A DNA stretch of 34,346 nt from a virus (lineage: Duplodnaviria; Caudoviricetes), in the IMG/VR virus record IMGVR_UViG_3300027769_000079, positions 1 to 34,346 of that record; one strand, written 5' to 3'. Positions 4,606-28,160 of the stretch are shown one piece after another. The position numbers and the translations under genes are program-made. Positions within the stretch are counted from its first letter, which is position 1. Every line of letters starts with the position of its first letter. The notes beneath the pieces are model-generated. The model was not told the origin of the DNA. It was given only the letters and a program-made list of their open reading frames with translations, and ran no database searches.

Positions 4606-4940
4606 ATTTAGCCGCTTTAGAAGGTCAAGTTTTTCTTCTAGGTCACTGGAAGAATTACGAAGAACTAGAAGAAAGTTTATCGCTGCCAGAATTGATTCAA
4701 ACAATTACAGCAATAAATGAAAAAGAGCACAACCAAAGAAAGTTTGCAGCATCACTAAAGGGAATACAGTTAGATGATGATGTGGAAGAAAAAGAAAAAG
4801 GTTCTACCTTTGAAGATATCCAAAGAAGAGCTCTTGGAATTAAAGCATCAGCAGATGATGTCGTTAGTTTGCAAGGACCCTTCGCAGCACAAGCTGGATT
4901 TGGAATCGGAGCAGGATTAGGATACTCTAGGAGTAATTAG
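4569..4940 (+). CDS. Tail assembly chaperone frameshift extension (gpGT-like C-terminal part)
   Basis: The -1 frame reads PNSGSGTGWPELDLAALEGQVFLLGHWKNYEELEESLSLPELIQTITAINEKE... to TAG 4940. It includes the 4692..4940 ORF, which has no evident SD of its own. Confidence 0.8.
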   Translation, partial: PNSGSGTGWPELDLAALEGQVFLLGHWKNYEELEESLSLPELIQTITAINEKEHNQRKFAASLKGIQLDDDVEEKEKGSTFEDIQRRALGIKASADDVVSLQGPFAAQAGFGIGAGLGYSRSN

Positions 4941-7900
4941 TGGCTGACGAACAAATTGTAACCAGCATAGTCGCCAAAGCCGACTTGTCTAGCCTTGTGT
5001 CTGAAGTACACAGGGCTAGTTCTAGTCTCCAACAATTACAAAGAGAGCTGCTTGCATCAAACAAAGCAATATCTTCTTCTACAAAATTAGCAAATAATTT
5101 ATTTAGAGATACATTAACTGGAAGCGGACAGTTCTCAAGCCACTTTGTAAACCTTAATTCTGATGTAGATAAGTTTGGTAAAAATTTAGATTCAGGCAGA
5201 TTAAAGCTTAAGAACTATTTCCAAACATTTAGAGAACACGCCACTACTCAAAAGGGCATGATCAGGGAGCTTGCCAAAGAGCAGGTAATGCTTCAAAACT
5301 CAGTACTTCAGCCGCTAGGTAGAAATGCTCAAGGCTTAATGCAGTACAATGTTATGATTCCTAGAGGACTAGATGCTATAGCAAATAGCGGAAAGTTAGC
5401 TCGAATGGAAATGCAGATTATGAATCGTGCATTATCCGAAGGAGCAGGTTCTTTAATTAACTGGGGTAAGAATACTCAGTGGGCTGGTAGACAGCTAACA
5501 GTAGGTCTAACTGTTCCAATGACTATGTTCGGTGCCGCAGCTGGAAAAGCTTTTAGAGAAGCAGATGCTGAACTAGTTAGATTGACAAAAGTTTATGGTG
5601 GCCTAGCTGCAACCTCAGCAAGTGATTTAAAAGCTATTAGAGAAGAAGTTGTTGAAACGGCAAAAGTTTTATCTAAAACAATGGGTGCATCTTTTAAAGA
5701 TACTATTGCATTGGGTGCTGATATCGCAGCAACAGGACAAACTGGAAATGAGCTTCTAGGATCTATTGCAGAAACAACAAGGCTTGCAGTACTTGGTGAA
5801 GTTGATAGACAAGATGCAATGAAAGCAACGTTATCTATTCAAACAGCATTTAAACAAAATACTCAAGAACTTACTGAATCAATTAACTTCCTTAACGCAG
5901 TTGAAAACCAAACCTCAACAACTCTTAATGACCTGGTAGAAGCAATTCCAAAAGCTGGGCCAGTAATTCAGCAACTAGGCGGAGATGTTAAAGATCTGGC
6001 TTTATATTTAACAGCAATGAGAGAAGGCGGTATTAGCGCATCAGAAGGTGCAAACGCACTGAAGTCTGGACTAGCCTCTTTGATTAACCCAACAAAACAA
6101 ACTGTCGGAATGATGTCGGATTTTGGAATTGATGTAATGGGAATGGTTGCTAGAAATACTGGCGATACAACTGGACTTCTAATGGATTTGCAAAAAGCAT
6201 TAGACTCACTTGATCCATTAAGCAAAGCAAGAGCAATGGAACAAATGTTTGGAAAGTTTCAGTTTGCAAGAATGAGCGCACTACTTAATAACTTAGGAAA
6301 ACAGGGAAGCCAGACGCTTCAAGTTTTAGATTTAATGAAAGCGAGCACAGCAGATCTTGCAGATGTAGCAAGCCGAGAATTAAAAATGGTTACAGAGTCT
6401 GCATCTGGTAAATATAAAAGAGCTATTGAAGGTCTTAAAGCAGAGCTTGCAGATGTTGGAGAAGAGTTCTTAGGAGTTGCAACTAAGCTTATAACCGCAG
6501 CGTCAAAAATATTAGATTTCTTTACTAGATTACCAGACCCAATCAAAAAAGGATTAACATTCCTTGCTGGGTTTACTGCATTAGTCGGACCACTTATTAT
6601 GTTAACTGGTGTACTTGCAAACTTCTTTGGTTATATAACTAAGGGTGTTGTTCAGTTAAGAGCATTCTTCATGAAAGCAAATGGCTGGAAGATGCTTACC
6701 CCAGAAATTATTGCTGCTGAAAAAGCAGCTCTTATGGTTGAGAATGCATTCTACTCAGATGCAGCAGCAGCTCAAGTTCTTCACAATGCTCTACAAAAAC
6801 TTGTTTTAGATTATCAAAATCTCCAAGCTGCATCTATGAAAAATGCAGTACCAGTTAATCCAGGAGTAAGCACAGTTGCTGGTTCACCAGTAATGGTTGG
6901 CGGAAGAAGAGTCGTTGATCCTAACGATCCATATGTTGGAGACCCTAATACTAGAGCCATGTCTCATATTAGACCAAGAGATATAAATAACCCAGCAACA
7001 ATATTTGGCGGTGTACCAGGAGCAATTCCAGTTAATAGAGGAATATCAAGAACTCCTCAAATGTATATGCAAGATAGACTTCCAAACATTGAAGGATTAA
7101 CAAGCGTAAAGGGAATATCAACAGGAATTGTTTCAGGTGAAGCAGCTAAATTCCATGCGCTGATGGCAACACTAGGAATGCAAACAGAGCAAGAAGTTGC
7201 TACATTAAAGAAAACTATTGCAATGGGCGGAACAGTTAGCAGAGAGCTTCTAGACACATTTGATGACATACTTCCAATAACTCAAAGATTTGCAGAGAGT
7301 GCAGCAACACAGTCAGCTTTAATTGTTCAGCAAATGAGAAATGCCGAAATAACTGTTGATCAAGCAAAAGCAAGGATACTTGCACTTAATGCACAAATAG
7401 AAACAGATATGGGATCAGCAGTAAGCATGTATGCTGCTGGACGAGGAAGAACAATTGATTTAACAAGAGCTCCAATGATGGATCAACCAGTTGTTGACGC
7501 TAATGGACAATTTACACTTAGAGATTTGTATAAGAAGAAAGCAAATGCTTCTGTTATGGAAGAGTTTGGAAGACTTCGCGGCGTAAGAACATTTGGAGCA
7601 CCTTATAGTATTCAGACAACTAGAATGCCTAAATTTAATATTGGTGGAGATGTAGAGTCATTTGGTCCAGGAAAGACTATGGTGTCTGGGCCATCTTCAA
7701 TTAACTATGATGACAGACTGGGAAGCGTTCCTCTAGGAGGGTATGTTTTAAATCAGCAAGCTTCGATGGATCCAGCAAATGCTGCATTAGTTGAGATGGC
7801 TCCGTCTACCTACTTAAATAATGGTGGAAACATTACTGCAGCGCTTACCCCACGGGAAGTCGTTTTTGGCCCTGAAATTCAAAGAATGCCTGAGCTTTAT

Positions 7901-10900
7901 GCAGCAGTAGATGCAGCCAACAACGGATATAGTTTTGGCGGGCAGATCATGCGTGGCATTAATTCATACGGAAAAGAAATGTCTAAGTCTGCTAAGGCTA
8001 GAATGAAAGAAGAAAACTTTAAAAGACAGTATAGAGAGTATCTAAAGTTTATCAATAACCCAAGATACGAAGATGATATAAGAATAAGAATGATCATGCT
8101 TGACGCAGCTGAATTATCTTATGAGCGTAATTTGCCAATTGATAAAGCTATAAATATTGCAACAAGTAACTTTGATTTAGCTAAAGCCCAATCTGGTGGA
8201 AACGATGAGAATTTTGTAAAAATAAGAATTAAGCAAGTGCAGGGGCTAGAAAGAGACGGCATGGTTCCCCGTGTTAAAGATGCAGAAAATTCTCCAAGAA
8301 GCGGTAGCAAAGCTTTAAATTATCAATTAAATGACGTTAGAGAAGCAATGCTAAAGAATAAAAAATTTGCTGGTGTGCATGATCTTATATCAGCAGTTGC
8401 TCCAACAACATTTTTAAATGACGACGGTTCTCCATCTATTAAAGGCTTGCACGATAAGGCACATTTTAGACGTAAAGATCTAGTTGGATATACAACTAGT
8501 GGGTACATGGGAGTTGCTGCTGTATTGCCTTCTGGTATAAATAATATCATGAGCATACTTGAGGGAATAGGTTTATCAAGAGATGTTTTAAATTTAAGTG
8601 CAGATGATGCAAGAGAAAACCTCGCAGTAGCATTAAAGAAAACAGGTTTAGACAAGCTTGCAAACGTAGATGACATATATACAGCTTTGCAAGATGATGG
8701 ATTATTTAAGAGTAAGGCTCAGATTGCATCTGGAAATGTGGTAAGGGCAAATAAGGATCAAAGAAAATCTTTAAGCATGCTTTTAGAAGCTGCAGCAAAA
8801 AGATCAAGGTGGGTATTTGCTGGAAGGCCTCCAAGACCAATGCTTGTAGCGGGAGCATACAATAAGGGCGGAATGATTCCAGGAGGATCAATATCTAGAA
8901 GTAGATCTAACTATGGAAACATATCACCACTATTAAAATTAATAGCACCAGATAAGCAGCTAAAGATCTTGCAACAAGCTCGTGAAATGTCAAAGGCTAC
9001 AGCAACTGGATCTTATAAGGACATGCCTCCTGTTAAATATGGACACATGGTTACCCCAAGCTCTGGAATGAGTTATCCGATACCTGGTGTTTCTGGCTTG
9101 TACAAAGATAGTGATGGTCGACTTAAGTTCTTTAAGGGTGTTCCAAATGAGATATCTGCCAGGGCTGAAGTGTATGGAACCAGAATGGCTAGAGAAGTAT
9201 TTGGTCTTGATGCTCCTGAGCAAACAATTAAAACAATAGCAAACCCATTAGACCCAACTGGAAAATCAAAGCTACTTGGTGTTGAATCCCCGTTTGATAA
9301 AAAGTTTACTACTGGTGGAACAGTCTTTTCAGAAGATGAAATGATTAGGCAAACAATTGCATCTTTAGTTATGAATAATAAAGATTTATCTCCAAGCAAT
9401 GTCTACGGAAATGTTTTAGCAGATGTCGGAGCAGCAGGAGTATTCTCTAAAGCCTCAGCTAACACAGCACACGCAGACTCTCTTCCTTCTATGATAGATC
9501 AAGCTATGATAAATCTACTTGGAGTTAAGGGCGGAGCTAGAAAAGACTTTGCAGTAAATACTGCTCCAATTGCTGCAGGAATGACAGCTAAGCAGTATAA
9601 CAGAAAAATAAAATCCGCAATGAAAAAAATGCATCCAAAACTTATTAAGTTTGTTGCAACGTTGCCAAGAGAAGACAGAGCTCCATATATCAAATTGCTA
9701 CAAAGATTTGAACAGGGCATGGATGATGCAACGGACTTCGGTCCGCTGCATGCAGTTCATGTTGCAGCTAAAAGAAATAGCGGAGGCCCAATTGGTGGAG
9801 GCCCAGTTAGATCAGGAAGATATGCCTATGGCGCTAAGAATAAAAAGGGTTCACAGAGGTCAGGAAACCCAGCTAAAAGAGCTCAGGATGAAAGATCCAG
9901 AGCGGCAAGAGCTGCCTCCTATAGCACTCCATCTGGTTCTGGCTATACAGCTTCAGATAATCCTCAGATGCAAGTGCAAAGAGCTCCTTATGTTGGTGGA
10001 TCTGGAATTTCTGGAAACGCATTTGGGGCAATTCAAAATCAACAATCTCAGCAGTATATTAACGCATTGCAAGTTTCTCAAATTGGTCAGCTTCCAGCAG
10101 GCATATCAAGAGCCTTTGATTCTTTAACTAAAACAATTGTATTAAAAACAACAGGGTTAAGATATGGAATTACAAGTTCTGTTCCTTATATTAATGAAGC
10201 TTACTCTTCTTTTACAAGAGGAATAATAAATTCTTCAAAACAGCAATCTGCAAAACTTTCTAACTATGTACAAACGCAGACAAGGGATTTAAAAGCAGGC
10301 ATATTAAGAGAGCAAGCAGTCAGAACAAATGCAGCATATCCAGGTATGAATATGCCAGTGTCTATGTTTGGTCCTGGAATGGTAGGAGAATGGCAAGATA
10401 TTGGACAAGATGGAATCAGAAGTCGTAAGGTAGGAGCACTCGGATATAGACAACGCGAGTACATGCTTCCTGACGGAACCATCCTTGATTCAAATGCTGC
10501 TAAAGCAAAAGGAATTTCAGCTCCTAGAGGAGGAATGGGAATAGGCGCCCAGATGGGCATCGGTATGGCTGGTAACATGGCTGGAATGTACTTGATGCAA
10601 CAACAAGAAATATTTGGAATGAAAGGGTCAAACGTAGGACTTGGCGTAATGGCTGCATCCAGCATAGCTCCAATGGTTCCTTATGCAAGAATGGGAAAGG
10701 CAGCCAAAGACGCTAAGAATTACGTAGCAGCGTTAATCGCAGCAGGTCTTACAGCTAAAGAAGTTATTTCTGCGCTTCTTGCCAAAGGATTAAGCATAGC
10801 AAAAATGTTGGGCTGGGTTGGTAAGGTCGTAGCTGTTGTAGCAAGTTTAGCTATGGCTTATAAGAATGTTAAGGATCGACAGCAAGATGCTGCCATAAGC

Positions 10901-13900
10901 CTTTCTACAACAGAAAAAGCTGCAGAACAAGCTGGATTTAAGTATGTAAGCCTAACGGACAAAATTCAAACATATTTAGATAAACAAAAATTAGCAGCAG
11001 AATCAGCAAAAACAGGATCAACAGCTTCATTTTCAATGCCTGGTATTCCTAGATCTGTAGAGGACATGAAGAAGGCTAAGAAAGAGGGCGAAGGTCTTAA
11101 AGATCTAATTGAATCTCTTAACCGAGCAGCCGTCGGAGAAGAAACTCAAATGATGATTAACAACCAAAAAGCACAAATGGTTGCAGCTGGAATGAGCATT
11201 GAAGAGGCAAACAGAAAAATTTACGGTGCTTTGGCAAATAGCAATAAAGCTCAACAAGCATACAAATATCTAGCAGATGTTCAATTTGGAGGAATTAAAG
11301 ACAAGGCTTCTGCCGCACAAGTTGCAGTTGGAAATTTAGTTTCAGTATTGGCTAACCCAAGCTCCACAGGACAAGAAATTTCATATGGGTTTGAGGGTCT
11401 TATTAATACATTTGATGCAGCAACATCTAGTCTTATAGGTACAAAAGATGCTATGGGAAATGTTATAGATGAGTATGAAGCTTATGGAATTGTTATGTCT
11501 TCTGCAGAATCCAAGTTTCCATCTTTTGGAAATGAGCCAATAGGTACAGAATCTTTTAGAGCGCTTTCAGAAGCTCAGCCCTTGCTAGCTGATATTTCAA
11601 ATAAATCTGATAGCATAAAAGGAATATTGGCAAAATGGAAACTATTTACTTCTGGAATAAATATAGATCTTAAAAATATTGACTCTACTTTAGCAATTAA
11701 GCTAGCTGGATTTACTCAGGCAATTGGAACAGGAATTTCTGAGCTAACCGCTGCTGCTGATAATGCAACTACATACGGAGCAACTGGAGCAGCACTAGCT
11801 AAATTACAAAAAGTAATTTCTGCAACTTCTGCTGCCTCACAAAGAGCAGCAGCTGCCTCTCAAAGAAGCGCACAAGAAGAGCTAAAATTAATTGCTAAAA
11901 AAATTAAGCTTATTGATGATGAAAAGAATAAAAAGTTAGAATCTTTAAGAGCAACTCAAGACGCATCTAATTACGCACTAGAGTTACAAAAACTTCAGAT
12001 ACAATATCAAGATGCCTTGTCTCGTGGAGATATGGCTGCTGCAAACAGAGCTCAACTAGAGATAGATCAGCTTACATCAAATAGACAATCTGAATTGGCT
12101 CAAAAAGCAATAGAAGATGCGGCAGCAAGAGCTAAGGCTCCACTAGAAGCAGATGCTTTAGCAATTTCTAATGCACAAGATCGAGCAGCAGCATCAGCTG
12201 CAGCAGGTCAAGATAATGCTGCGGTAGCAGGTGAGATTACTGCTACAATTCAAAAGCTACAAACAAGATATAATGATCTTACAACAATGGCACTCAATGC
12301 AAAAGTTCTTCCAGAAAAAGAAAGATTGGCTCAAGAGTCTGAGGTTAGAAGACAACTTATTATACTTGTTCAGGAAATGCAGAAAGCTGGTACTGGATCT
12401 AGCCTGCTTGCTAAAACAGTAAGAGATGCATTCCCAGGATACTTTGATGCAAATGGAAAACCATTAGCTCCAGTTTCAACATTTACTGGATCTCCAAGAG
12501 GATTTAACCCTGATGGCACACCAATTCTTTCAACAAACACTGTAACCAATAACAGCGCACTAACTCAATTTAATAAAGATATTGCAGCTGTAGAAAAACT
12601 AGCTTTAGGAATTACAGGCGGAATGACTATTAAGCAATTAGCTGCAGACATTGCTAAAAGCCTAGGTGTTAGTGATATTAGAGCTAAGAATCCTATTGGT
12701 TCAGGAACTTCAACTTCAACAAAAATTGCTGCAATAACTGCAAAAGATGGAAATGCAGCAGGATCTGCTGCTTTAAAATTGGGTTCTCAAACAAGACAAT
12801 TTACTTTACCAGATGATCCTTATAGAAAGTACTCAGTATTTACATATAACGGAAAGACATATGCTATAGATCCAATTAGCGGATCGATATTTAATTTTGA
12901 TTCTAGCAACAACATATTAGGATCTGTAGTTAAAGACAGAAAAAAAATGTATACTGGTGGAAAAGTTTCTGGTCCAGGAACTGCAACATCAGATTCAATT
13001 CCAGCAATGCTTTCAGATGGAGAATATGTATTTAGTGCAAAAGCTGTAGATGCCGCTGGAGGACCAGATGTTGTTGACAACTGGCACAAAGCACTTAGAA
13101 GAGCAGATGGTGGACCAGTCTACCCTTCATGGAAAAAGCCAAAGTCTGCATACAACTCTAAGAATCAACCTACTGGAAGTCCTTACGGAAGATACTGGGG
13201 AGAATTAGAAAGACTATATCAAAGCTCACCAATCGGTTTTGATAAAAATGGAAAGCCTATATTTAATAATGCTGGAAAAGATCCATGGGGCGGAGTAGAG
13301 ATACCAGGACTTCCATTTAGTGGCAAGGTGGGACAGTTCTCAGATTACTGGCATCAGCTAGCAGAGCAACTAAGAAAGTCTAGCGGTCCTGGAATGGGCA
13401 TCGATAAGTCTACGCCACCACTAGTTGGATCGGGTGCATCTGCTTGGACTGGAGGCTTACTAGGAGGCGGCGGAGGCGGCATGCTTGGATATGCAGATGG
13501 AGGCCTGGTTAAGGGACAATCCGCATGGTCTAAGGTTATGCACACTGCAATGAAGGCGATAGACCCATTTAAATTTGGTAAACATAGTTTAGGATATAAT
13601 TTCTTAGGCGGAAAAGAAATTGCAAATGTATTTTCTGGAACTGGGAAAAAGTCAGACTACCTATCTGCAGCTCTAGCACCACTTGGAGGATTTGGAAGAG
13701 GGGCAGCAAAAGCACCAGGTGCTATATCAAAACTTACATCTGAGATGAAATCTTTCCATATGTCAGATATTGATTCTAAGGCCATGAATGCTTTATCAAA
13801 TATGGATCTATCCTCAATTAGAATTCCAGAAACAGGTATTAGCTTTAGTCCAGCATCAGCTAAAGCTGGTTTAGAAGCATTAAAAGAAGGGGTTACATCA

Positions 13901-16195
13901 TCCTCTGCTTGGGAAATTGTTCAAGCACAAAGAGAAACATTATTAAAGAATAAATATCCAAAAGTTGATCTATCTGATGTAGCAAAATTTAATGAGTATT
14001 ACGCAAAAGAATTTTACGGCTTGCTTCCAGATGATTCTATTAAATTATTTAAGGGAGTAAGAAGCACAATAGGAGGCGCTTGGAGAACTGGAGAAAAAGA
14101 TCTAGCAACTTATTTCTCCACTAACCCACATGTAGCCGCCCTATACAGTGCAATGATAGGCAAAGCAAAGCTTGGCGATGAACTTCCAATGTTTGCAATT
14201 GATAGAAGGATATCTGATCTTAGAAATTTCTTGGGTGAAGGTGCTGTAAGAAATGGAAATGCACAGGGAAGCATGGAGTTTCCACAACTTCTTGGAGGGA
14301 AAGATTTATCAGATGTTCTTCCTAGTATGTATTCTTTGCCAGGACAAGTTTATGGTCAGATGTTTGGTGGAGCAGCAACATCATTAACAAAAATAAAAAA
14401 TTTGTGGCCAAAAGGTTTCCACGAAGGTGGTTGGGTGCACGCACATCCTCATGAGACCTCATGGAAACAGCATGTTCCAAATTATGAAAGCAGTGGAGGA
14501 CCAGGCTCTTACAATTCATCATTAGGTAAAGGCATGTTTGATGGATTCTCCATACCCTGGCTAGATTCTTTAGGTGTTAAAGGAATACACCAAACCTTTA
14601 ATAAAATTTTTCAAGGTGGAAAAAATAAAGGTATAAATGATGCTTACTCATCTTCTCCAAATAAAGGAGACTATGCAAATGCAGCTTTATTCCCTCTCAA
14701 CTTTGCTGGAATGGGAATAGGCAAAAAATTTGCGTCAATGGGAATGCGGCAAAACCTTGCTAATCTTCTGGGAGGAACAAAGCTCCCAGGCCAAATACCA
14801 AATCAAATTTATGAAAGCGCAATAGAAAAGGGTATAAGGCTAGAAAAAGGCGAAACTGGAGTAAATGAAACCTATCGCGCAATTTTAGACGGAGTTAGTG
14901 GTTTCTATAAACCTCAACTTGGAAACATGGAAACCAAAAGAGAAATGTTTGGCTCTATATTTTCTAGGGCACTCGGACTTCTTGCCCCTGCTAATGTACC
15001 AGTTGTTACAGGAAACTTCTTGAGACCAGGTGGAATATTTAGTCCAGATGTGGCAGCTCAGGGTGGTTCACTTTTAAAAAATATAAAAGGATCTACTACT
15101 GGTATATTTGGAGAGTATGATAAGCTTTCATCTGTTGAGGAGGCTATTTCAAGCGGGTATAGAGCAGCAATGATGTCTGCTATGAGATATGTAGATGGTC
15201 ATGATGGAAATTTAGTATTAAATCCAATCACAAAACAGCCAGGTCTTATAGATTTTGGAATGATTTTAGATTTTTATCCAAAAGGAGCTGGAAGCTTCAT
15301 CCCCTCCATGTTTTCGCCACTAAGACAACACGTTCCAAATTTAGTTGATGCAGTTGCTGACCCAAAAAGACAAGCATTTTTTGAGGGTTTGCTAAAAGCA
15401 AAAGATGTATTGTCTGGCTTGTCTAGATCAGACATTAAGGATATGTTAAAATCTGCTGGATATAAAGGAATAGATCTTAATAAAAAATTAAAAATTGTAA
15501 CAAATAGCATTAAGGATACAGTTAATGCAATGCCATCTGCAGTTGATGACGCTCTATTTGATGTACCAGATGCTCCATCGTGGCCTAGCAATGCCATGAT
15601 TGGTCCTGATGGTAAGATTACATTAGGTAAAGGCAAAAAGGGATTACAGCCTAATATCAGCGCACCATCAATAAAGGGATTCCCATCATTTGACACCCTA
15701 TTCAAAACACCAAAGGGATTCCCATCTATTAGCAGCTTGCCAAATTCCATTAAAAATGTACGCAATCTGTGGAGCACCCCAAAAGAAGTAACAGGTACTG
15801 GATGGAGTGACGTAGCAGGAAAAATAATATTTGACAGCAGTACAATTAACCCAGTGGTTAAGAATATACGCAAGCTGTGGAATGCTAAAGGATTCTCCGA
15901 AGGTGGACCAGCAAATGCTTTATCAAACCTTGGAGTCCCAATGTTTGAAGATGGAATTAATATGGTTCCTGCAAATATGCTGGCGCTGCTTCATAAAAAT
16001 GAAGCAGTTGTTCCAGCTAACATGAACCCATTTAATCCAAATGCATCAGCGGCTGTATCTGGTTCAGTGTATAATATTAATGTAGAATTAAATGGAACAA
16101 CAGTGACGGCAAAAGATGTTGCACTAGAAATACGTAATGAGATGAGAATTAAAGAAATGGCAGCGGGAGTAAATAGAACGGTGGGCAGATCATGA
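4940..16195 (+). CDS. Giant tape measure protein (3751 aa) with embedded kinase-like and ART-like cargo domains
   Basis: Directly after the chaperones. TP901-type TMP region (FLNAVENQTSTTLNDLVEAIPKAGPV...GANALKSGLASL), hydrophobic segments, Ala-rich coiled coils and the C-terminal GPGTATSDSIPAMLSDGEYV motif. Confidence 0.93.
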   Translation: MADEQIVTSIVAKADLSSLVSEVHRASSSLQQLQRELLASNKAISSSTKLANNLFRDTLTGSGQFSSHFVNLNSDVDKFGKNLDSGRLKLKNYFQTFREHATTQKGMIRELAKEQVMLQNSVLQPLGRNAQGLMQYNVMIPRGLDAIANSGKLARMEMQIMNRALSEGAGSLINWGKNTQWAGRQLTVGLTVPMTMFGAAAGKAFREADAELVRLTKVYGGLAATSASDLKAIREEVVETAKVLSKTMGASFKDTIALGADIAATGQTGNELLGSIAETTRLAVLGEVDRQDAMKATLSIQTAFKQNTQELTESINFLNAVENQTSTTLNDLVEAIPKAGPVIQQLGGDVKDLALYLTAMREGGISASEGANALKSGLASLINPTKQTVGMMSDFGIDVMGMVARNTGDTTGLLMDLQKALDSLDPLSKARAMEQMFGKFQFARMSALLNNLGKQGSQTLQVLDLMKASTADLADVASRELKMVTESASGKYKRAIEGLKAELADVGEEFLGVATKLITAASKILDFFTRLPDPIKKGLTFLAGFTALVGPLIMLTGVLANFFGYITKGVVQLRAFFMKANGWKMLTPEIIAAEKAALMVENAFYSDAAAAQVLHNALQKLVLDYQNLQAASMKNAVPVNPGVSTVAGSPVMVGGRRVVDPNDPYVGDPNTRAMSHIRPRDINNPATIFGGVPGAIPVNRGISRTPQMYMQDRLPNIEGLTSVKGISTGIVSGEAAKFHALMATLGMQTEQEVATLKKTIAMGGTVSRELLDTFDDILPITQRFAESAATQSALIVQQMRNAEITVDQAKARILALNAQIETDMGSAVSMYAAGRGRTIDLTRAPMMDQPVVDANGQFTLRDLYKKKANASVMEEFGRLRGVRTFGAPYSIQTTRMPKFNIGGDVESFGPGKTMVSGPSSINYDDRLGSVPLGGYVLNQQASMDPANAALVEMAPSTYLNNGGNITAALTPREVVFGPEIQRMPELYAAVDAANNGYSFGGQIMRGINSYGKEMSKSAKARMKEENFKRQYREYLKFINNPRYEDDIRIRMIMLDAAELSYERNLPIDKAINIATSNFDLAKAQSGGNDENFVKIRIKQVQGLERDGMVPRVKDAENSPRSGSKALNYQLNDVREAMLKNKKFAGVHDLISAVAPTTFLNDDGSPSIKGLHDKAHFRRKDLVGYTTSGYMGVAAVLPSGINNIMSILEGIGLSRDVLNLSADDARENLAVALKKTGLDKLANVDDIYTALQDDGLFKSKAQIASGNVVRANKDQRKSLSMLLEAAAKRSRWVFAGRPPRPMLVAGAYNKGGMIPGGSISRSRSNYGNISPLLKLIAPDKQLKILQQAREMSKATATGSYKDMPPVKYGHMVTPSSGMSYPIPGVSGLYKDSDGRLKFFKGVPNEISARAEVYGTRMAREVFGLDAPEQTIKTIANPLDPTGKSKLLGVESPFDKKFTTGGTVFSEDEMIRQTIASLVMNNKDLSPSNVYGNVLADVGAAGVFSKASANTAHADSLPSMIDQAMINLLGVKGGARKDFAVNTAPIAAGMTAKQYNRKIKSAMKKMHPKLIKFVATLPREDRAPYIKLLQRFEQGMDDATDFGPLHAVHVAAKRNSGGPIGGGPVRSGRYAYGAKNKKGSQRSGNPAKRAQDERSRAARAASYSTPSGSGYTASDNPQMQVQRAPYVGGSGISGNAFGAIQNQQSQQYINALQVSQIGQLPAGISRAFDSLTKTIVLKTTGLRYGITSSVPYINEAYSSFTRGIINSSKQQSAKLSNYVQTQTRDLKAGILREQAVRTNAAYPGMNMPVSMFGPGMVGEWQDIGQDGIRSRKVGALGYRQREYMLPDGTILDSNAAKAKGISAPRGGMGIGAQMGIGMAGNMAGMYLMQQQEIFGMKGSNVGLGVMAASSIAPMVPYARMGKAAKDAKNYVAALIAAGLTAKEVISALLAKGLSIAKMLGWVGKVVAVVASLAMAYKNVKDRQQDAAISLSTTEKAAEQAGFKYVSLTDKIQTYLDKQKLAAESAKTGSTASFSMPGIPRSVEDMKKAKKEGEGLKDLIESLNRAAVGEETQMMINNQKAQMVAAGMSIEEANRKIYGALANSNKAQQAYKYLADVQFGGIKDKASAAQVAVGNLVSVLANPSSTGQEISYGFEGLINTFDAATSSLIGTKDAMGNVIDEYEAYGIVMSSAESKFPSFGNEPIGTESFRALSEAQPLLADISNKSDSIKGILAKWKLFTSGINIDLKNIDSTLAIKLAGFTQAIGTGISELTAAADNATTYGATGAALAKLQKVISATSAASQRAAAASQRSAQEELKLIAKKIKLIDDEKNKKLESLRATQDASNYALELQKLQIQYQDALSRGDMAAANRAQLEIDQLTSNRQSELAQKAIEDAAARAKAPLEADALAISNAQDRAAASAAAGQDNAAVAGEITATIQKLQTRYNDLTTMALNAKVLPEKERLAQESEVRRQLIILVQEMQKAGTGSSLLAKTVRDAFPGYFDANGKPLAPVSTFTGSPRGFNPDGTPILSTNTVTNNSALTQFNKDIAAVEKLALGITGGMTIKQLAADIAKSLGVSDIRAKNPIGSGTSTSTKIAAITAKDGNAAGSAALKLGSQTRQFTLPDDPYRKYSVFTYNGKTYAIDPISGSIFNFDSSNNILGSVVKDRKKMYTGGKVSGPGTATSDSIPAMLSDGEYVFSAKAVDAAGGPDVVDNWHKALRRADGGPVYPSWKKPKSAYNSKNQPTGSPYGRYWGELERLYQSSPIGFDKNGKPIFNNAGKDPWGGVEIPGLPFSGKVGQFSDYWHQLAEQLRKSSGPGMGIDKSTPPLVGSGASAWTGGLLGGGGGGMLGYADGGLVKGQSAWSKVMHTAMKAIDPFKFGKHSLGYNFLGGKEIANVFSGTGKKSDYLSAALAPLGGFGRGAAKAPGAISKLTSEMKSFHMSDIDSKAMNALSNMDLSSIRIPETGISFSPASAKAGLEALKEGVTSSSAWEIVQAQRETLLKNKYPKVDLSDVAKFNEYYAKEFYGLLPDDSIKLFKGVRSTIGGAWRTGEKDLATYFSTNPHVAALYSAMIGKAKLGDELPMFAIDRRISDLRNFLGEGAVRNGNAQGSMEFPQLLGGKDLSDVLPSMYSLPGQVYGQMFGGAATSLTKIKNLWPKGFHEGGWVHAHPHETSWKQHVPNYESSGGPGSYNSSLGKGMFDGFSIPWLDSLGVKGIHQTFNKIFQGGKNKGINDAYSSSPNKGDYANAALFPLNFAGMGIGKKFASMGMRQNLANLLGGTKLPGQIPNQIYESAIEKGIRLEKGETGVNETYRAILDGVSGFYKPQLGNMETKREMFGSIFSRALGLLAPANVPVVTGNFLRPGGIFSPDVAAQGGSLLKNIKGSTTGIFGEYDKLSSVEEAISSGYRAAMMSAMRYVDGHDGNLVLNPITKQPGLIDFGMILDFYPKGAGSFIPSMFSPLRQHVPNLVDAVADPKRQAFFEGLLKAKDVLSGLSRSDIKDMLKSAGYKGIDLNKKLKIVTNSIKDTVNAMPSAVDDALFDVPDAPSWPSNAMIGPDGKITLGKGKKGLQPNISAPSIKGFPSFDTLFKTPKGFPSISSLPNSIKNVRNLWSTPKEVTGTGWSDVAGKIIFDSSTINPVVKNIRKLWNAKGFSEGGPANALSNLGVPMFEDGINMVPANMLALLHKNEAVVPANMNPFNPNASAAVSGSVYNINVELNGTTVTAKDVALEIRNEMRIKEMAAGVNRTVGRS
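15673..15881 (+). repeat. Short direct repeats near TMP 3' end
   Basis: AAAGGGATTCCCATC exact at 15673-15687 and 15712-15726. A 24-mer with 21/24 identity at 15750-15773 and 15858-15881. Confidence 0.85.
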
Positions 16196-16776
16196 GTTTC
16201 CAAAACTTATCTAAAGGATCAATTCTATACATAGAAGCCATAGACCCATTTGCAATTGATACTAGTACTAATACCTTTGATTATAAAGGTGCTACAGTTA
16301 CTCCACCAGGTAATATATATGATGCTACAACAGCATCTAGAAATGGTCTATCTCATTTAACAAGAACTCAACCAGCTTTTAGACGGGTTACTGAGCATAA
16401 CAGATCCCCAATATCATTAAATACAAATAGAATTGAGCAGTCAACGAGAATGGCAAACGGAACAACAAGGAAGTATTTTGTGGCAGATAAGATAAATATT
16501 GCCGCATCTTGGGAAATGGTTCCATCATTTAGAAATGAAACAGTTGATGGAGCCTGGGGAGCAGAAGATTTAAAAGAGTTTTATGAAAGTGAAGCTGGTC
16601 AAGGTGCATTTAGAATAAAATTAAACCCAACAGTATTTTCTCCAAGCTTAATAACAGATGGAGCACTATCAGATGATTATACATATACAGTGATGATTAC
16701 TTCTTGCGACTTTACTCTTGCAAAAAGAGGTATCCAGCCATTTTGGAGTATTGACATATCTATGGAGCAGGTATGA
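16192..16776 (+). CDS. Minor tail protein (distal-tail/Dit position)
   Basis: 194 aa, ATGA overlap with TMP stop. Motif EHNRSPISLNTNRIEQSTRMANGTTRKYFVADK. Confidence 0.7.
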   Translation: MSFQNLSKGSILYIEAIDPFAIDTSTNTFDYKGATVTPPGNIYDATTASRNGLSHLTRTQPAFRRVTEHNRSPISLNTNRIEQSTRMANGTTRKYFVADKINIAASWEMVPSFRNETVDGAWGAEDLKEFYESEAGQGAFRIKLNPTVFSPSLITDGALSDDYTYTVMITSCDFTLAKRGIQPFWSIDISMEQV

Positions 16777-19700
16777 TAACGGTTGAACCTGCAACAAAAA
16801 ATTTACTTAAAACTGGATTAAATGTTTCAACTTCAGCTGGTGCTGAGTTAGAGTACAATTTAAATTCAATGGTTGAGCATATAACGGCAACATCATCTGC
16901 TTTAACAAATACATTTGCGGCTGCCTTTAAAAAGCTATTTCCAATAGATACAATATATAAACCATTTAGGCCCGTGTCCCCAGGAATTAAATATTTAGTT
17001 CATACAGATGGATTCACAGACACAAAAAAAGATTCTTTTGAAAACCCAAGGAATATAGAGATGGGAACAAATCCTAGACTTTATTATCCTGGCCCAGACA
17101 TGGTTTATAAATATTGGCTGGCTCCTAAGAATACAAATATTGATATATCTCTTGAGTATTTTTCAGATGAAGCAAAGACTACAGCCAAACTAATACCTGT
17201 AAATAAAATTGTTGCAAGGTTTGAAACTGGCCACGACACGCCAATCTCTTGGGTAATAAGTGTAGTTAAGCAAGATAACACAGTTGTTAACACACCTGGC
17301 ACATATATTAATTCAAGCGGTGAAGCAACAATATACTACAATGGAACTGCATGGTCAACAACAAAGCCTGATACATATACAACAACTCAATATGTAAAGA
17401 AGATATCTTTGACGGCAGTTAATTCAAATACAGGAAAGTTTCTAGGAGTAATTGAGTTAAGCCCTAGATGGGTTTTGCCAGTTGATTCAGATATAGTTTC
17501 TCTTTCAATAAATAAAGAAACTACTTCGGATGACAATTCAATTGTTCCAGTCGGCATAATAACTGCAAACTATTTAAATCTAACTATAACAAAGCCACCA
17601 TTACCTTCTAAAAAAATTTTTGAATACGACAGGGCATCAACATCAATAGATAACACAAAGGTTTATTTATTTAAAAATGTTATAATTAGGCCCTATATAA
17701 ATATTGGAAATTCCTCTAGTTCAGAAAAAGTTCCTCAAGGCACATTTTACATAAATTCCTGGACACTTTCAGAATTTGGAGAAGCATCTATAGATGCAAC
17801 AGATGCTGCAAAGATATTGCAGGACACATTATGTCCACAGCTATTTGTTGAAGACTCACCAGCAACATCTGTTATTAAGAGAGTTTTAGATTCAATTGGT
17901 TTTTCTAATTATAAGATAAATGTTGCAAAGGCTGATGGCGAGGTTGATGTTACTTCTATACCTTCATTTGGGTACTGGTGGTCTGATGGCGACAAGACAG
18001 TCTGGGATGTTCTTCAAGAAATCTGCAGAGATATTCAGATGAATGCTTTTGTAGACGAGTATAATGTTTTAAATTTTTATAGTAGAAATGTTATATACGA
18101 TAAAACAATTACACCAAAGTGGACATTTACTAGTGAAAATATAAACACTGGCGGAGTCTTAGACTATGCACCAAATATAATTTCTCTTTCAACCAAAGAA
18201 CTTTTTTCAGCAAACCAAGTTAGGGTTAGATATTCAACAGCATTTTCTTCTTCAAACAGCCAGTCATCTTCACCGCTTTGGAAGTCTGACACATCATTTT
18301 TAGGAGCTGGAGCTTTGGCAAAGACAATAGAAGATAACGATACTGATTTTTATCTTAATCCAAATACAGTGAACACTGCGAGAACAGATAGGATTATGGA
18401 TCAGTTCAATGGATATGTTTTAATTAATGGAGAAGTAATTGAATACGATGGAGTTTGGTATCAATATACTCCTGCAGAACAGAATACAACAGTTAACCCT
18501 CCTATTGACAAAGCCCCAGTTGAAGTTCTGATTAAAAATCAATCTGACATATGGAAACATTCAGTAAAAGCTAAAGCTGGCTATAAGTATTTTCAGCCTA
18601 TGAATAAATATAATATTAAAACAAGAGGAGCGCTAGGAACTTCAAAACCATTAGTACCCCATAAACCAGCTCCAGAAGATTACATTAATAAAGAAGGGGA
18701 AAATAATTCAAATAAGTTTAATCAAAAGAAGATTACTTTGGCCTCACTAGATCCTGCAACTTCCTCAATTGGAGTTGGGTCTATTAAAAATGTAAGAAAT
18801 TCTGATGAATTTATAAAGAAGGGGTATCTTACAGTTTCAAACCCAGACTTTGATAAGTCAACATTTACTATGGTTTTAAAAGAATTTAATTCTATTAATC
18901 TTTCCGACAACTACTTGTCATTTGGAACTAGAATGTTTTTTGATAGCCAGCTAAGCAGCCAGGCACAAGTTGCTGGCATAGGATTTTGTTTAGATGCAGA
19001 CGGCAAGAATGGATACTATGTATTAATTAGAACAACAGCTTACGCGGAATTGCAGAAAGACATAATGATTGTTAAGGTTAAAAACAATAAGCTTACTGTT
19101 TTAAAAGATAGCCAGCAGGTATCTACAAAAACATTATCTGGAATATATGCAGGAGCTTCATACGTAATTGATGCGCTAGTTAAAAAAGAAAGCCTGCCAT
19201 TCGGTGCAACAAGAAATGTAATAACTGTTTTTATTAATGGATATAAAATTACAGCAACTGACACTGGATCAGATTCAATAAATAATTATATTCCGCCAGT
19301 ATCTTTTACAAAAAATGTTGGTGTACACTGTGGCCAAGGAACAGCATATTTTGAATTCTTATATGCAAAAAGTCTTGACGAGAAAAAATATCTAGATAAA
19401 AGCGAACGTGCAATGATTCAGTATAATGGTGTTTATTCAGATGACACACTTTCAATGCTTTATGGAGATTTAATTTATAATTCTGGAGAAGTGGCTACAG
19501 TTGATAGCGGTGCCATTTTTGAGTTTGGAACTACAGCAAGAGAAATTAAAAAAACAAAGGTTTCTTATGACGATAGGCCAGCACTACCTATTCAATTTAG
19601 AACATCTTTAAATAAGTATGTTACAGTTTTAGCTGAAAAGCTGCAGCCTTTTGGAGCAGAAAGCTACGTCCTAAACAATACTTCAGTAACTGTAGCACTA

Positions 19701-27359: not shown

Positions 27360-28160
27360 ATGAGTAACGATTTAAAGTGGATGATTTCATCCGACCAGCA
27401 ATTTCCATATCAGGATGATAAGATGATCGCACTTTGGTTCAAGGTCATGAAGTGGTTTAAGCCAGATGTTGTAGACTATTTGGGAGACACAGATGACCAA
27501 GCATGCTATAGCAAGTATACAGAAGGAAGATCTGCAGAATTTTTAAATCTTCATAAAACTGATAGTAGAGACCTTATTGTTCCAATGATGCGTCATGAAG
27601 CAAAAGGCGCTAGAGATTTTTATACAAAGACAAGAGAAATGCTACCAGAGGCTCAGCTTTTTTCAGCGTTAGGAAATCACGATGTTAGAATTTTTAACTA
27701 TGTAGATGCAAAGCTTCCAGATTATATTAATGAGGTTACTCCAGAAGCACTATGGGGATTAGATTCATTGGGTTACGAATATATTCATTATAATGAATTG
27801 CCTAAACGCCGCTTTGGAGATATACACGTTCACCATGGACTTTCAATTGCAGCAACTGGATCTGTTCGTAAAGATATGGAAGATCTACAGGTGTCTTTAA
27901 TTAGAGGCCACTCACATAGAATTGCTTCTCACCTAGTAACATATGAACTAAGAAACGGTGGAGAAGGAGAAACTCTTCGTGGATATGAGCTTGGTCACAT
28001 GTGTGATGAAAAGGGACCAGGAATGAAATACATGCAGCACCATGATTGGCAAAAAGGTTTTGCTATTGCACATATTGTAAATGACTATCCACACATTCAA
28101 ATGATTCATGTGGCTCCAGATTACTCATGTGTTGTTGACGGGAAGCTATTTACACTATGA
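27360..28160 (+). CDS. Calcineurin-like metallophosphoesterase
   Basis: Motifs SSDQQ, GDTDD, GNHD, HHG, GHSH in canonical order. Confidence 0.85.
   Translation: MSNDLKWMISSDQQFPYQDDKMIALWFKVMKWFKPDVVDYLGDTDDQACYSKYTEGRSAEFLNLHKTDSRDLIVPMMRHEAKGARDFYTKTREMLPEAQLFSALGNHDVRIFNYVDAKLPDYINEVTPEALWGLDSLGYEYIHYNELPKRRFGDIHVHHGLSIAATGSVRKDMEDLQVSLIRGHSHRIASHLVTYELRNGGEGETLRGYELGHMCDEKGPGMKYMQHHDWQKGFAIAHIVNDYPHIQMIHVAPDYSCVVDGKLFTL

Follow-up and report, generated by a model that had tools for sequence, protein, structure and literature searches.

Phage tape measure proteins (TMPs) occupy the lumen of the tail and exit at infection, and a TMP that contains an enzyme-like domain raises the question of what that domain is and what it could do to the infected cell. 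We addressed this question for a 34-kb contig of an uncultured freshwater phage (IMG/VR record IMGVR_UViG_3300027769_000079, all 34,346 nucleotides, hereafter the window), in which a preliminary description had proposed that one virion protein carries two different kinases, the second of them (kinase 2) an intact kinase of PI3/4 type. The protein is encoded by an open reading frame (ORF) at 4940-16195 that has both the PhageMin_Tail domain and the position in a tail gene block expected of a siphophage TMP, flanked by a tail-tube-like gene (PF25681, E 2.4e-5, below the cut-off) and a minor tail gene (phrog_10359). Judged from its sequence and predicted structure, kinase 2 is real and intact, the second of the two domains of kinase fold that this TMP contains, and it is a cassette exchangeable between phages, a point that the preliminary description had missed.

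All motif positions proposed earlier for kinase 2 are in frame in the TMP ORF (Table 1). From 24 distinct profile matches to kinase 2, L069/L070 were excluded because only their catalytic stretch (DPHPGN..IDFG, which we take to be ABC1-like) matches, leaving 23 distinct full-length copies; a metagenome scan gave 4 loci, among which L067, identical to the window, was left out of the counts, and L068 is a repeat of L054. The catalytic residues had been described as intact, and K3324 (codon at 14909), E3335 (codon at 14942), D3419, H3421, N3424 and D3438 are indeed the same in 23 of 23 copies, the most diverged of which share ~28% identity. The alignment has 25 invariant columns out of 248, all six catalytic residues among them (hypergeometric 6e-7), and shuffling the complete TMP 20,000 times produced the pattern D-x-H-x-x-N..[ILV]D[FH]G twice. 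Strand-3 Lys, helix-C Glu, the catalytic D..N loop and the metal-binding Asp follow each other in the model in the expected order of secondary structure, and the copies form two subfamilies, DxHDGN and DxHGGN. Kinase 2 is thus likely to be active, as far as sequence and model can tell.

The AlphaFold2 model of kinase 2 was built on a 10-sequence alignment (pLDDT 71.8). VIA alignment of this model gave Z 13.8 for CtkA (root mean square deviation 3.9, 214 residues aligned) and Z 13.1 for MavQ (4.2, 209 residues aligned), with further scores of 11.9 for actin-fragmin kinase, 11.3 for CotH, 11.1 for PI4KIIa, 10.8 for Fam20 and 10.6 for HipA. Every one of the 50 rows listed was of kinase fold, the top 23 belonging to the PI3K/PI4K/HipA/CtkA/CotH/Fam20 group, and a Foldseek search of the PDB agreed with the PI3K-like atypical group (E 3e-4 to 1e-3). 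The predicted model thus bears out the proposed fold group, and the region earlier assigned to the domain (14830..15540) was right except for its start, which lies slightly earlier, the first model strand being at residues 3295-3300 (nucleotide ~14822). The label "PI3/4-kinase-type" says more than the fold does. Protein kinases and lipid kinases both occur among the fold neighbours, and the two best, CtkA and MavQ, are tied, so the substrate class is not readable from the predicted structure.

Profile searches placed kinase 2 in none of the curated families, with no significant match in Pfam, PHROG, NCBIfam or PADLOC. Hidden Markov models of PI3_PI4_kinase did not match the window protein, the best PF00454 values being E 0.089 (2 of 10 members) and 0.16 (1 of 16), and HipA_C and HipA_2 matched nothing in Pfam, either in the window protein or among 10 and 16 kinase-2 members, or in PADLOC. 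The sole trace of HipA was a feature lead from the Atlas, in which HipA_2 stood at rank 29 and covered 46% of one cluster. The layout of HipA-like toxins, a stand-alone gene beside an antitoxin, is absent, as kinase 2 is internal to the TMP and its flanks are tail genes. PI3/PI4 kinases of PF00454 have a DRH catalytic loop with Arg, whereas among the 23 kinase-2 copies the second position holds any of G, D, N, S, T, K, L and A but in no case R. The DxHxxN..IDFG motif, put forward as a PI3/4K-HipA signature, is not diagnostic by itself; among the weak Pfam matches that it draws, ABC1 ranks first (E 0.06 in the window, and up to 0.5 in 8 of 16 members). PDB sequence searches returned helical chance matches only, and neither kinase matches any of 50,697 INPHARED phage records. 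Among 1.84 billion representatives kinase 2 has 8 matches, all TMP-like, and one 433-aa match was found among proteins of 136-476 aa, no stand-alone copy being confirmed; a scan of GTDB bacterial genomes confirmed 0 of 19 pattern matches. Kinase 2 is therefore best described, from sequence and model, as a family of kinase fold whose active site is preserved and which lies outside the curated PI3K and HipA families.

How kinase 2 varies among phages is visible at the DNA level. Beyond a conserved block, segments that each start with [FY]xxGG (hereafter joints) are arrayed along the C-terminal part of the TMP, and the array ranges in size from none (L003-L007, L017, L041 and L042, ~2800 aa) to many (up to 4711 aa), TMP length in close relatives being 2795 to 4711 aa. 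Other cassettes of relatives include CHAP, LysM and OmpA domains (Pfam, most above the cut-off), weak GNAT matches and HExxH motifs. Among 35 loci fetched through the gene downstream of the TMP, many of them near-identical and one (L013) too short to show the array, kinase 2 occurs in 1. It is absent throughout 5 of 5 near-complete relatives, and a control search recovered all 3 known carriers among 5 records. DNA matches to the window end at joints, at 14411-15906 with L001, 13559-14418 with L065 and 12956-13398 with L014. A contig from another study (X10) joins 14431 to 15916, so that 1157 other bases replace 1484 (14432-15915); the difference of 327 keeps the frame, and the flanks are 95.7% and 94.4% alike to the window. 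Kinase 2 is thus an optional cassette, exchanged in frame at [FY]xxGG joints. The joints of the window are not marked by any long DNA repeat, so recombination at joints as the swapping route is inferred from the breakpoints. In L001 (9017-9327) a short cassette is tandemly duplicated between GG joints, as unequal recombination at joints predicts.

Exchange is also apparent over longer distances. L037/L062 and the window are 97% alike in the TMP core but only 33% in kinase 2, whereas the kinase 2 of L037/L062 is 92% identical to that of L064, whose core is 49% alike. Trees were made from the 13 copies that come with TMP core, 10 of the 23 being left out for lack of it. In the core tree the window groups with L037 (99/97), while in the kinase-2 tree it groups, on a long branch, with P0004-P0006 of the other core clade (100/100), and L037 is sister to L064 (89/100, not starred). 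Between the window and L040, synonymous divergence (dS) is lower in kinase 2 (0.13) than in the core (0.68), and the ratio of nonsynonymous to synonymous divergence (dN/dS) is 0.62 in kinase 2, 0.14 in kinase 1 and 0.04 in the core (42.5 and 20.5 differences); two nearly identical kinase-2 pairs gave 0.23 and 1.5. This pattern of sequence change fits recent exchange together with fast change, through either diversifying selection or relaxed constraint. L064 (9314-13327) has kinase 2, kinase 1 and kinase 2 in a row, its two kinase-2 copies being 54% identical.

An assembly chimera was ruled out as the source of the kinase-2/TMP fusion, because a contig from the X1 run, separately assembled although possibly from the same source sample, covers 11940-16800 with 0 differences, and because L001 has the same in-frame fusion at 86% identity (TMP core 96-97% identical to that of the window).

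The other kinase-fold domain, kinase 1, gave a model of pLDDT 89.8 from 27 sequences, with VIA Z scores of 11.8 for CotH, 10.6 for PI4KIIa, 10.4 for MavQ and 10.3 for CtkA. Its invariant residues are K, E, a D-L-x-x-x-N loop and D, and it has no family match in Pfam, PHROG or NCBIfam. The two domains had been called only distantly similar, in agreement with BLASTP (E 0.003 over 59 aa) and hhalign (probability 6%), and the idea of two different kinases in one TMP survives, on the models, as two kinase-fold domains of the same fold and separate families. Kinase 1 is present in 31 of the 35 downstream-gene loci, and 3 of the 4 without it do not extend to its position; in the wider family it is mobile as well, being absent in L059-L061, L063, L065 and L066. 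In L051 (7986-10858) the TMP ORF is split into several pieces across kinase 1, by frameshifts or sequencing errors.

The host is likely an actinobacterium, as WhiB was found in relatives (above the cut-off in 3 of 5 related records, that of L001 among them), the closest isolates are large Streptomyces phages (DnaE ~59%, TMP core 39% identity), and the sequencing runs are from freshwater. WhiB serves as an actinophage marker in PMC6802176. Nine of nine runs that hold at least half of the window stretch are freshwater metagenomes, 8 of them flagged as a possible source and one (X9) from a separate study, and no RNA run is among the listed holders. A GTDB scan with kinase 1 confirmed 1 of 10 pattern matches, a TMP contig in an Acidimicrobiaceae metagenome-assembled genome (MAG). 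This contig encodes a related 2913-aa TMP with kinase 1 (L071:3242-11980) and is either a prophage or a co-binned phage; the MAG was not used to call the host, since the contig may be co-binned.

What, then, could kinase 2 do? We find it slightly more probable than not that it is a TMP cassette that is packed, ejected at infection and phosphorylates host proteins before phage genes are expressed. It would enter the tail within the TMP, probably unfolded, be ejected with it, possibly be released by cleavage at or near joints, and then reach the cytoplasm, where ATP is found, and refold there; its protein target may be, for example, a defence or housekeeping factor of the actinobacterial host. 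The TMP would be a polyvalent delivery vehicle, with kinase 1 fixed and kinase 2 variable from strain to strain. CtkA, actin-fragmin kinase, CotH and HipA, all of them protein kinases, are among the top 8 VIA rows of kinase 2. The confinement of kinase 2 to TMP-type ORFs points the same way, as do its conflict-like patchy presence, the disagreement of core and kinase-2 trees, and the in-frame swap. The CHAP, LysM, OmpA, GNAT and HExxH cassettes are the domain mix of injected polyvalent proteins, as the available part of PMC5512222 presents them. According to two reports (10.1101/2022.09.20.507954, PMC12617516), T5 and lambda TMPs undergo cleavage close to the C terminus, the C-terminal fragments stay in the particle, kept in the tip, and for T5 it has been proposed that the fragment enters the host on release and digests the wall; C-terminal proteolytic maturation is not universal among TMPs (PMC12617516). 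T7 kinase gp0.7 (T7K), a phage protein kinase described in PMC13645617 as disarming host defences, offers a precedent for kinase 2.

Several observations weigh against this explanation. By analogy with T5, a C-terminal TMP piece would target the cell wall and not the cytoplasm, and the kinase-2 cassette comes after both of the last hydrophobic segments of the TMP (residues 541-559 and 1929-1971), where that analogy points to the wall. A leader that might cross membranes is present in only 9 of 16 kinase-2 cassettes; the pattern, which was written after inspection of the data, also occurs in 1 of 9 CHAP and 14 of 40 other cassettes, hydropathy did not cleanly separate the cassette classes, and the leaders match no pre-toxin Pfam family. 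The kinase-2 model is weak at the catalytic loop (pLDDT <50 at 134-140) and was built from 10 sequences, and the residue after DFG (15260-15262) is Met in the window and Arg in 20 of 23 copies; L001 shares this Met. dN/dS of 0.39-0.62 in 6 of 8 close kinase-2 pairs also fits relaxed constraint, and MavQ and PI4KIIa, at Z 13.1 (tied with CtkA) and 11.1, are lipid kinases.

This last point leads to a different substrate for a delivered enzyme, a lipid or small-molecule kinase that acts on phosphatidylinositol, another envelope lipid or a sugar at the entry site, anchored there by its leader. We regard it as unlikely, although PI4KII, PI4KIII and Vps34 rank high beside the tied MavQ and CtkA, and rows of BFVD include phage proteins with the database label "PI3K/PI4K domain". 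A basic patch after DFG is a mark of PI3K, and the 25 residues after the DFG of kinase 2 hold none (2-6 K/R, roughly balanced by D/E), just as the window protein has no match to PF00454. The bacterial phosphatidylinositol kinase PikA needs an H-x-x-N..D motif, according to PMC12607708, and an actinobacterial host, as WhiB in 3 of 5 records suggests, could offer the lipid, mycobacteria making inositol phospholipids (PMC6506517, in part); however, the sole actinobacterial MAG with a kinase-1 contig has a PIP-synthase match below the cut-off (128 of 170 bits), and a literature search on host lipids returned nothing relevant. A bolder version, in which the TMP is a programmable injection magazine whose [FY]xxGG cassettes are cut apart and fired, and kinase 2 a virion-delivered phosphatidylinositol kinase that rewrites bacterial membrane lipids, we hold to be quite improbable; if true, a phage would here turn against a bacterium a chemistry that pathogens of eukaryotes are known to use.

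Delivery itself may be doubted. An active kinase could be cut out at joints during tail assembly, stay in the producing cell and act late, on the host, a competing phage or the timing of lysis, and cleavage of T5 and lambda TMPs near the C terminus, with half of the lambda gpHC copies possibly lost (PMC12617516, in the part available), would agree with this, as would TMPs of 2795 to 4711 aa, a large spread if all of the length sets tail length. Such an enzyme could do without TMP fusion, but the searches confirmed no stand-alone copy, and the cell-wall cassettes (CHAP, LysM) of the same array fit the particle best, so we rate this as rather unlikely. That kinase 2 is a mere passenger, decaying or inactive and contributing nothing but length, would account for its high dN/dS and its dispensability in most relatives, but seems very unlikely to us with six catalytic residues invariant down to ~28% identity, two subfamilies maintained and two copies in L064. 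Most improbable in our view is a "Trojan horse" effector against flagellates that eat infected cells or particles: its closest folds are host-directed bacterial kinases, and the idea has been proposed for ADP-ribosyltransferases of freshwater phages in PMC6802176 (part of the text), but the location in a tail lumen protein points delivery to the bacterial host, and Pfam scans found no eukaryote-targeting domain in the cassette. A protein kinase delivered to the cytoplasm with the TMP stays the explanation that we prefer.

The other features of the window are listed together with those of kinase 2 in Table 1. Its genes run from tail genes through the TMP and minor tail genes to helicase- and primase-like ORFs (by eye) and a DnaE-like polymerase. 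Most of the 40 listed matches to the conserved block that opens the array are annotated as TMPs. The cassette at 13100..13489 has no Pfam or PHROG match, and the ADP-ribosyltransferase label of the next one (13490-14416), which we assume from LFKGVR, YFSTN and a late Glu, found no family match in any profile library searched. Three further [FY]xxGG joints lie in the N-terminal half of the TMP (7634-8890; residues 899, 997 and 1307), and because the last segment between them, from 997 to 1307, looks unrelated in L001, a second variable array ahead of kinase 1 is likely. An OmpA-family peptidoglycan-binding domain forms a TMP cassette in L060 (7583-8434, E 1.2e-16). Outside the TMP, an ORF at 27360-28160 has motifs, noted by eye, that we take to be those of a calcineurin-like phosphoesterase; a Pfam scan of the window proteins gave no match for it.

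Table 1. Positions in the window of the TMP, its kinase-fold domains and the surrounding cassettes
Feature	Coordinates	Strand	Basis
TMP, 3751 aa, holds both kinase-fold domains	4940..16195	+	PF10145 PhageMin_Tail, E 9.7e-27, residues 240-438
Kinase 1 domain (residues 1365-1610), of the kinase-2 fold group but a family of its own, constant among close relatives	9032..9769	+	model and conserved residues
Conserved YTGG..GPGT.TSDSIPAML block opening the variable array	12947..13039	+	matches 976 of 50,697 phage records
Upstream array cassette, function unassigned	13100..13489	+	12956-13398 94.6% identical to L014
Neighbouring cassette, ADP-ribosyltransferase-like motifs by eye, unconfirmed	13490..14416	+	13559-14418 79% identical to L065, ends at joint
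Whole kinase-2 cassette, FHEGG joint to just beyond FSEGG joint, exchange unit	14417..15915	+	DNA breakpoints
Hydrophobic Gly-rich stretch in cassette leader (DYANAALFPLNFAGMG), possibly membrane-interacting	14669..14716	+	by-eye pattern, weak
Kinase 2 domain, predicted PI3K-like atypical kinase fold, residues 3285-3534	14792..15541	+	AlphaFold2 model and structure search
GETGVNETY, loop between first two model strands (Gly-loop position), residues 3304-3312	14849..14875	+	N3309 invariant
GFYKP K3324 (end of model strand 3) and KREMFG E3335 (next helix), predicted ATP-positioning pair	14909..14944	+	invariant 23/23
Catalytic loop D3419-G-H3421-D-G-N3424, within VDGHDGNLVL	15194..15211	+	D, H, G3423 and N invariant 23/23
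DFG metal-binding motif, residues 3438-40 (D3438)	15251..15259	+	D and F invariant 23/23; S for G in L053
Conserved TMP C-terminal end beyond the last joint	15893..16195	+	phrog_25966 tape measure, E 1.4e-6; DNA-level match in close relatives

An intact PI3K-like kinase family that profiles do not see is swapped in frame between phages that are ~95% alike, which, if the preferred explanation is right, would mean strain-by-strain variation of a pre-made ATP-dependent effector in these freshwater phages. Three questions become accessible to test, namely what share of a TMP determines the length of the tail, whether cleavage occurs at the GG joints, and whether foldable enzymes can reach the cytoplasm through the tail lumen, and the window and the X10 contig form a natural pair with and without the kinase-2 cassette. 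A literature search, which left most subscription papers outside, turned up neither kinases carried by TMPs nor such a cassette array, and term searches inside the accessible text of PMC5512222, PMC7824862, PMC9503650, PMC6802176 and PMC13645617 found no kinase domains in TMPs. The kinase fold as such is not new to phages, because BFVD has similar predicted folds for further long phage proteins, and virion-linked multidomain proteins may often contain a PI3K-like fold. Those in BFVD include long proteins of Gordonia phages GodonK and Sixama and of Mycobacterium phage Onyinye, a portal fusion and haloviruses, and some with a similar predicted fold are named ADP-ribosyltransferase or portal.

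Compared with known kinases, kinase 2 resembles CtkA (3akj/3akk), MavQ (7m7a), actin-fragmin kinase (1cja), CotH (5jda), PI4KIIa (4pla) and HipA/HipT in its predicted two-lobed fold (~210 residues aligned, Z 10.6-13.8) and shares the K, E, DxHxxN and DFG layout of CtkA-group kinases; it differs from them in its identity of 9-17%, in belonging to none of their profiles, in its fusion inside a phage structural protein, and in having neither an accessory lipid-binding domain nor a neighbouring antitoxin. JSS1_004 is reportedly another phage kinase that acts early on the host. T7K, which does so according to the part of PMC13645617 at hand, is a plausible functional model for kinase 2, but it has a DPV motif and a shut-off domain, whereas kinase 2 has DFG, a predicted PI3K-like fold and no PHROG match. 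Although T7K is the best-studied anti-defence phage kinase, that text does not describe it as virion cargo, and known TMP cargo is mainly cell-wall hydrolase. As in the polyvalent proteins of Iyer et al. 2017 (PMC5512222, seen in part), disparate enzyme domains vary in cassette-like fashion within one polypeptide among virion genes, here two kinase folds and, in relatives, CHAP, LysM, OmpA, GNAT-like and HExxH cassettes. The carrier in our case is a TMP, a word search for "tape" giving 0 hits in the main text of that paper, and the kinase clade described there is without the whole C-terminal subdomain, unlike the kinase-2 model, which retains it (helices 115-130 and 171-246), aligns ~210 residues to full kinases and thus falls outside that clade. 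Like T5 pb2/pb2C and lambda gpH/gpHC, the window TMP has its cargo in the C-terminal part, and its array-opening block is common to hundreds of annotated TMPs; known cargo of such TMPs is a peptidoglycan hydrolase, whereas here a fold predicted to be ATP-dependent sits in an exchangeable array of several cassettes.

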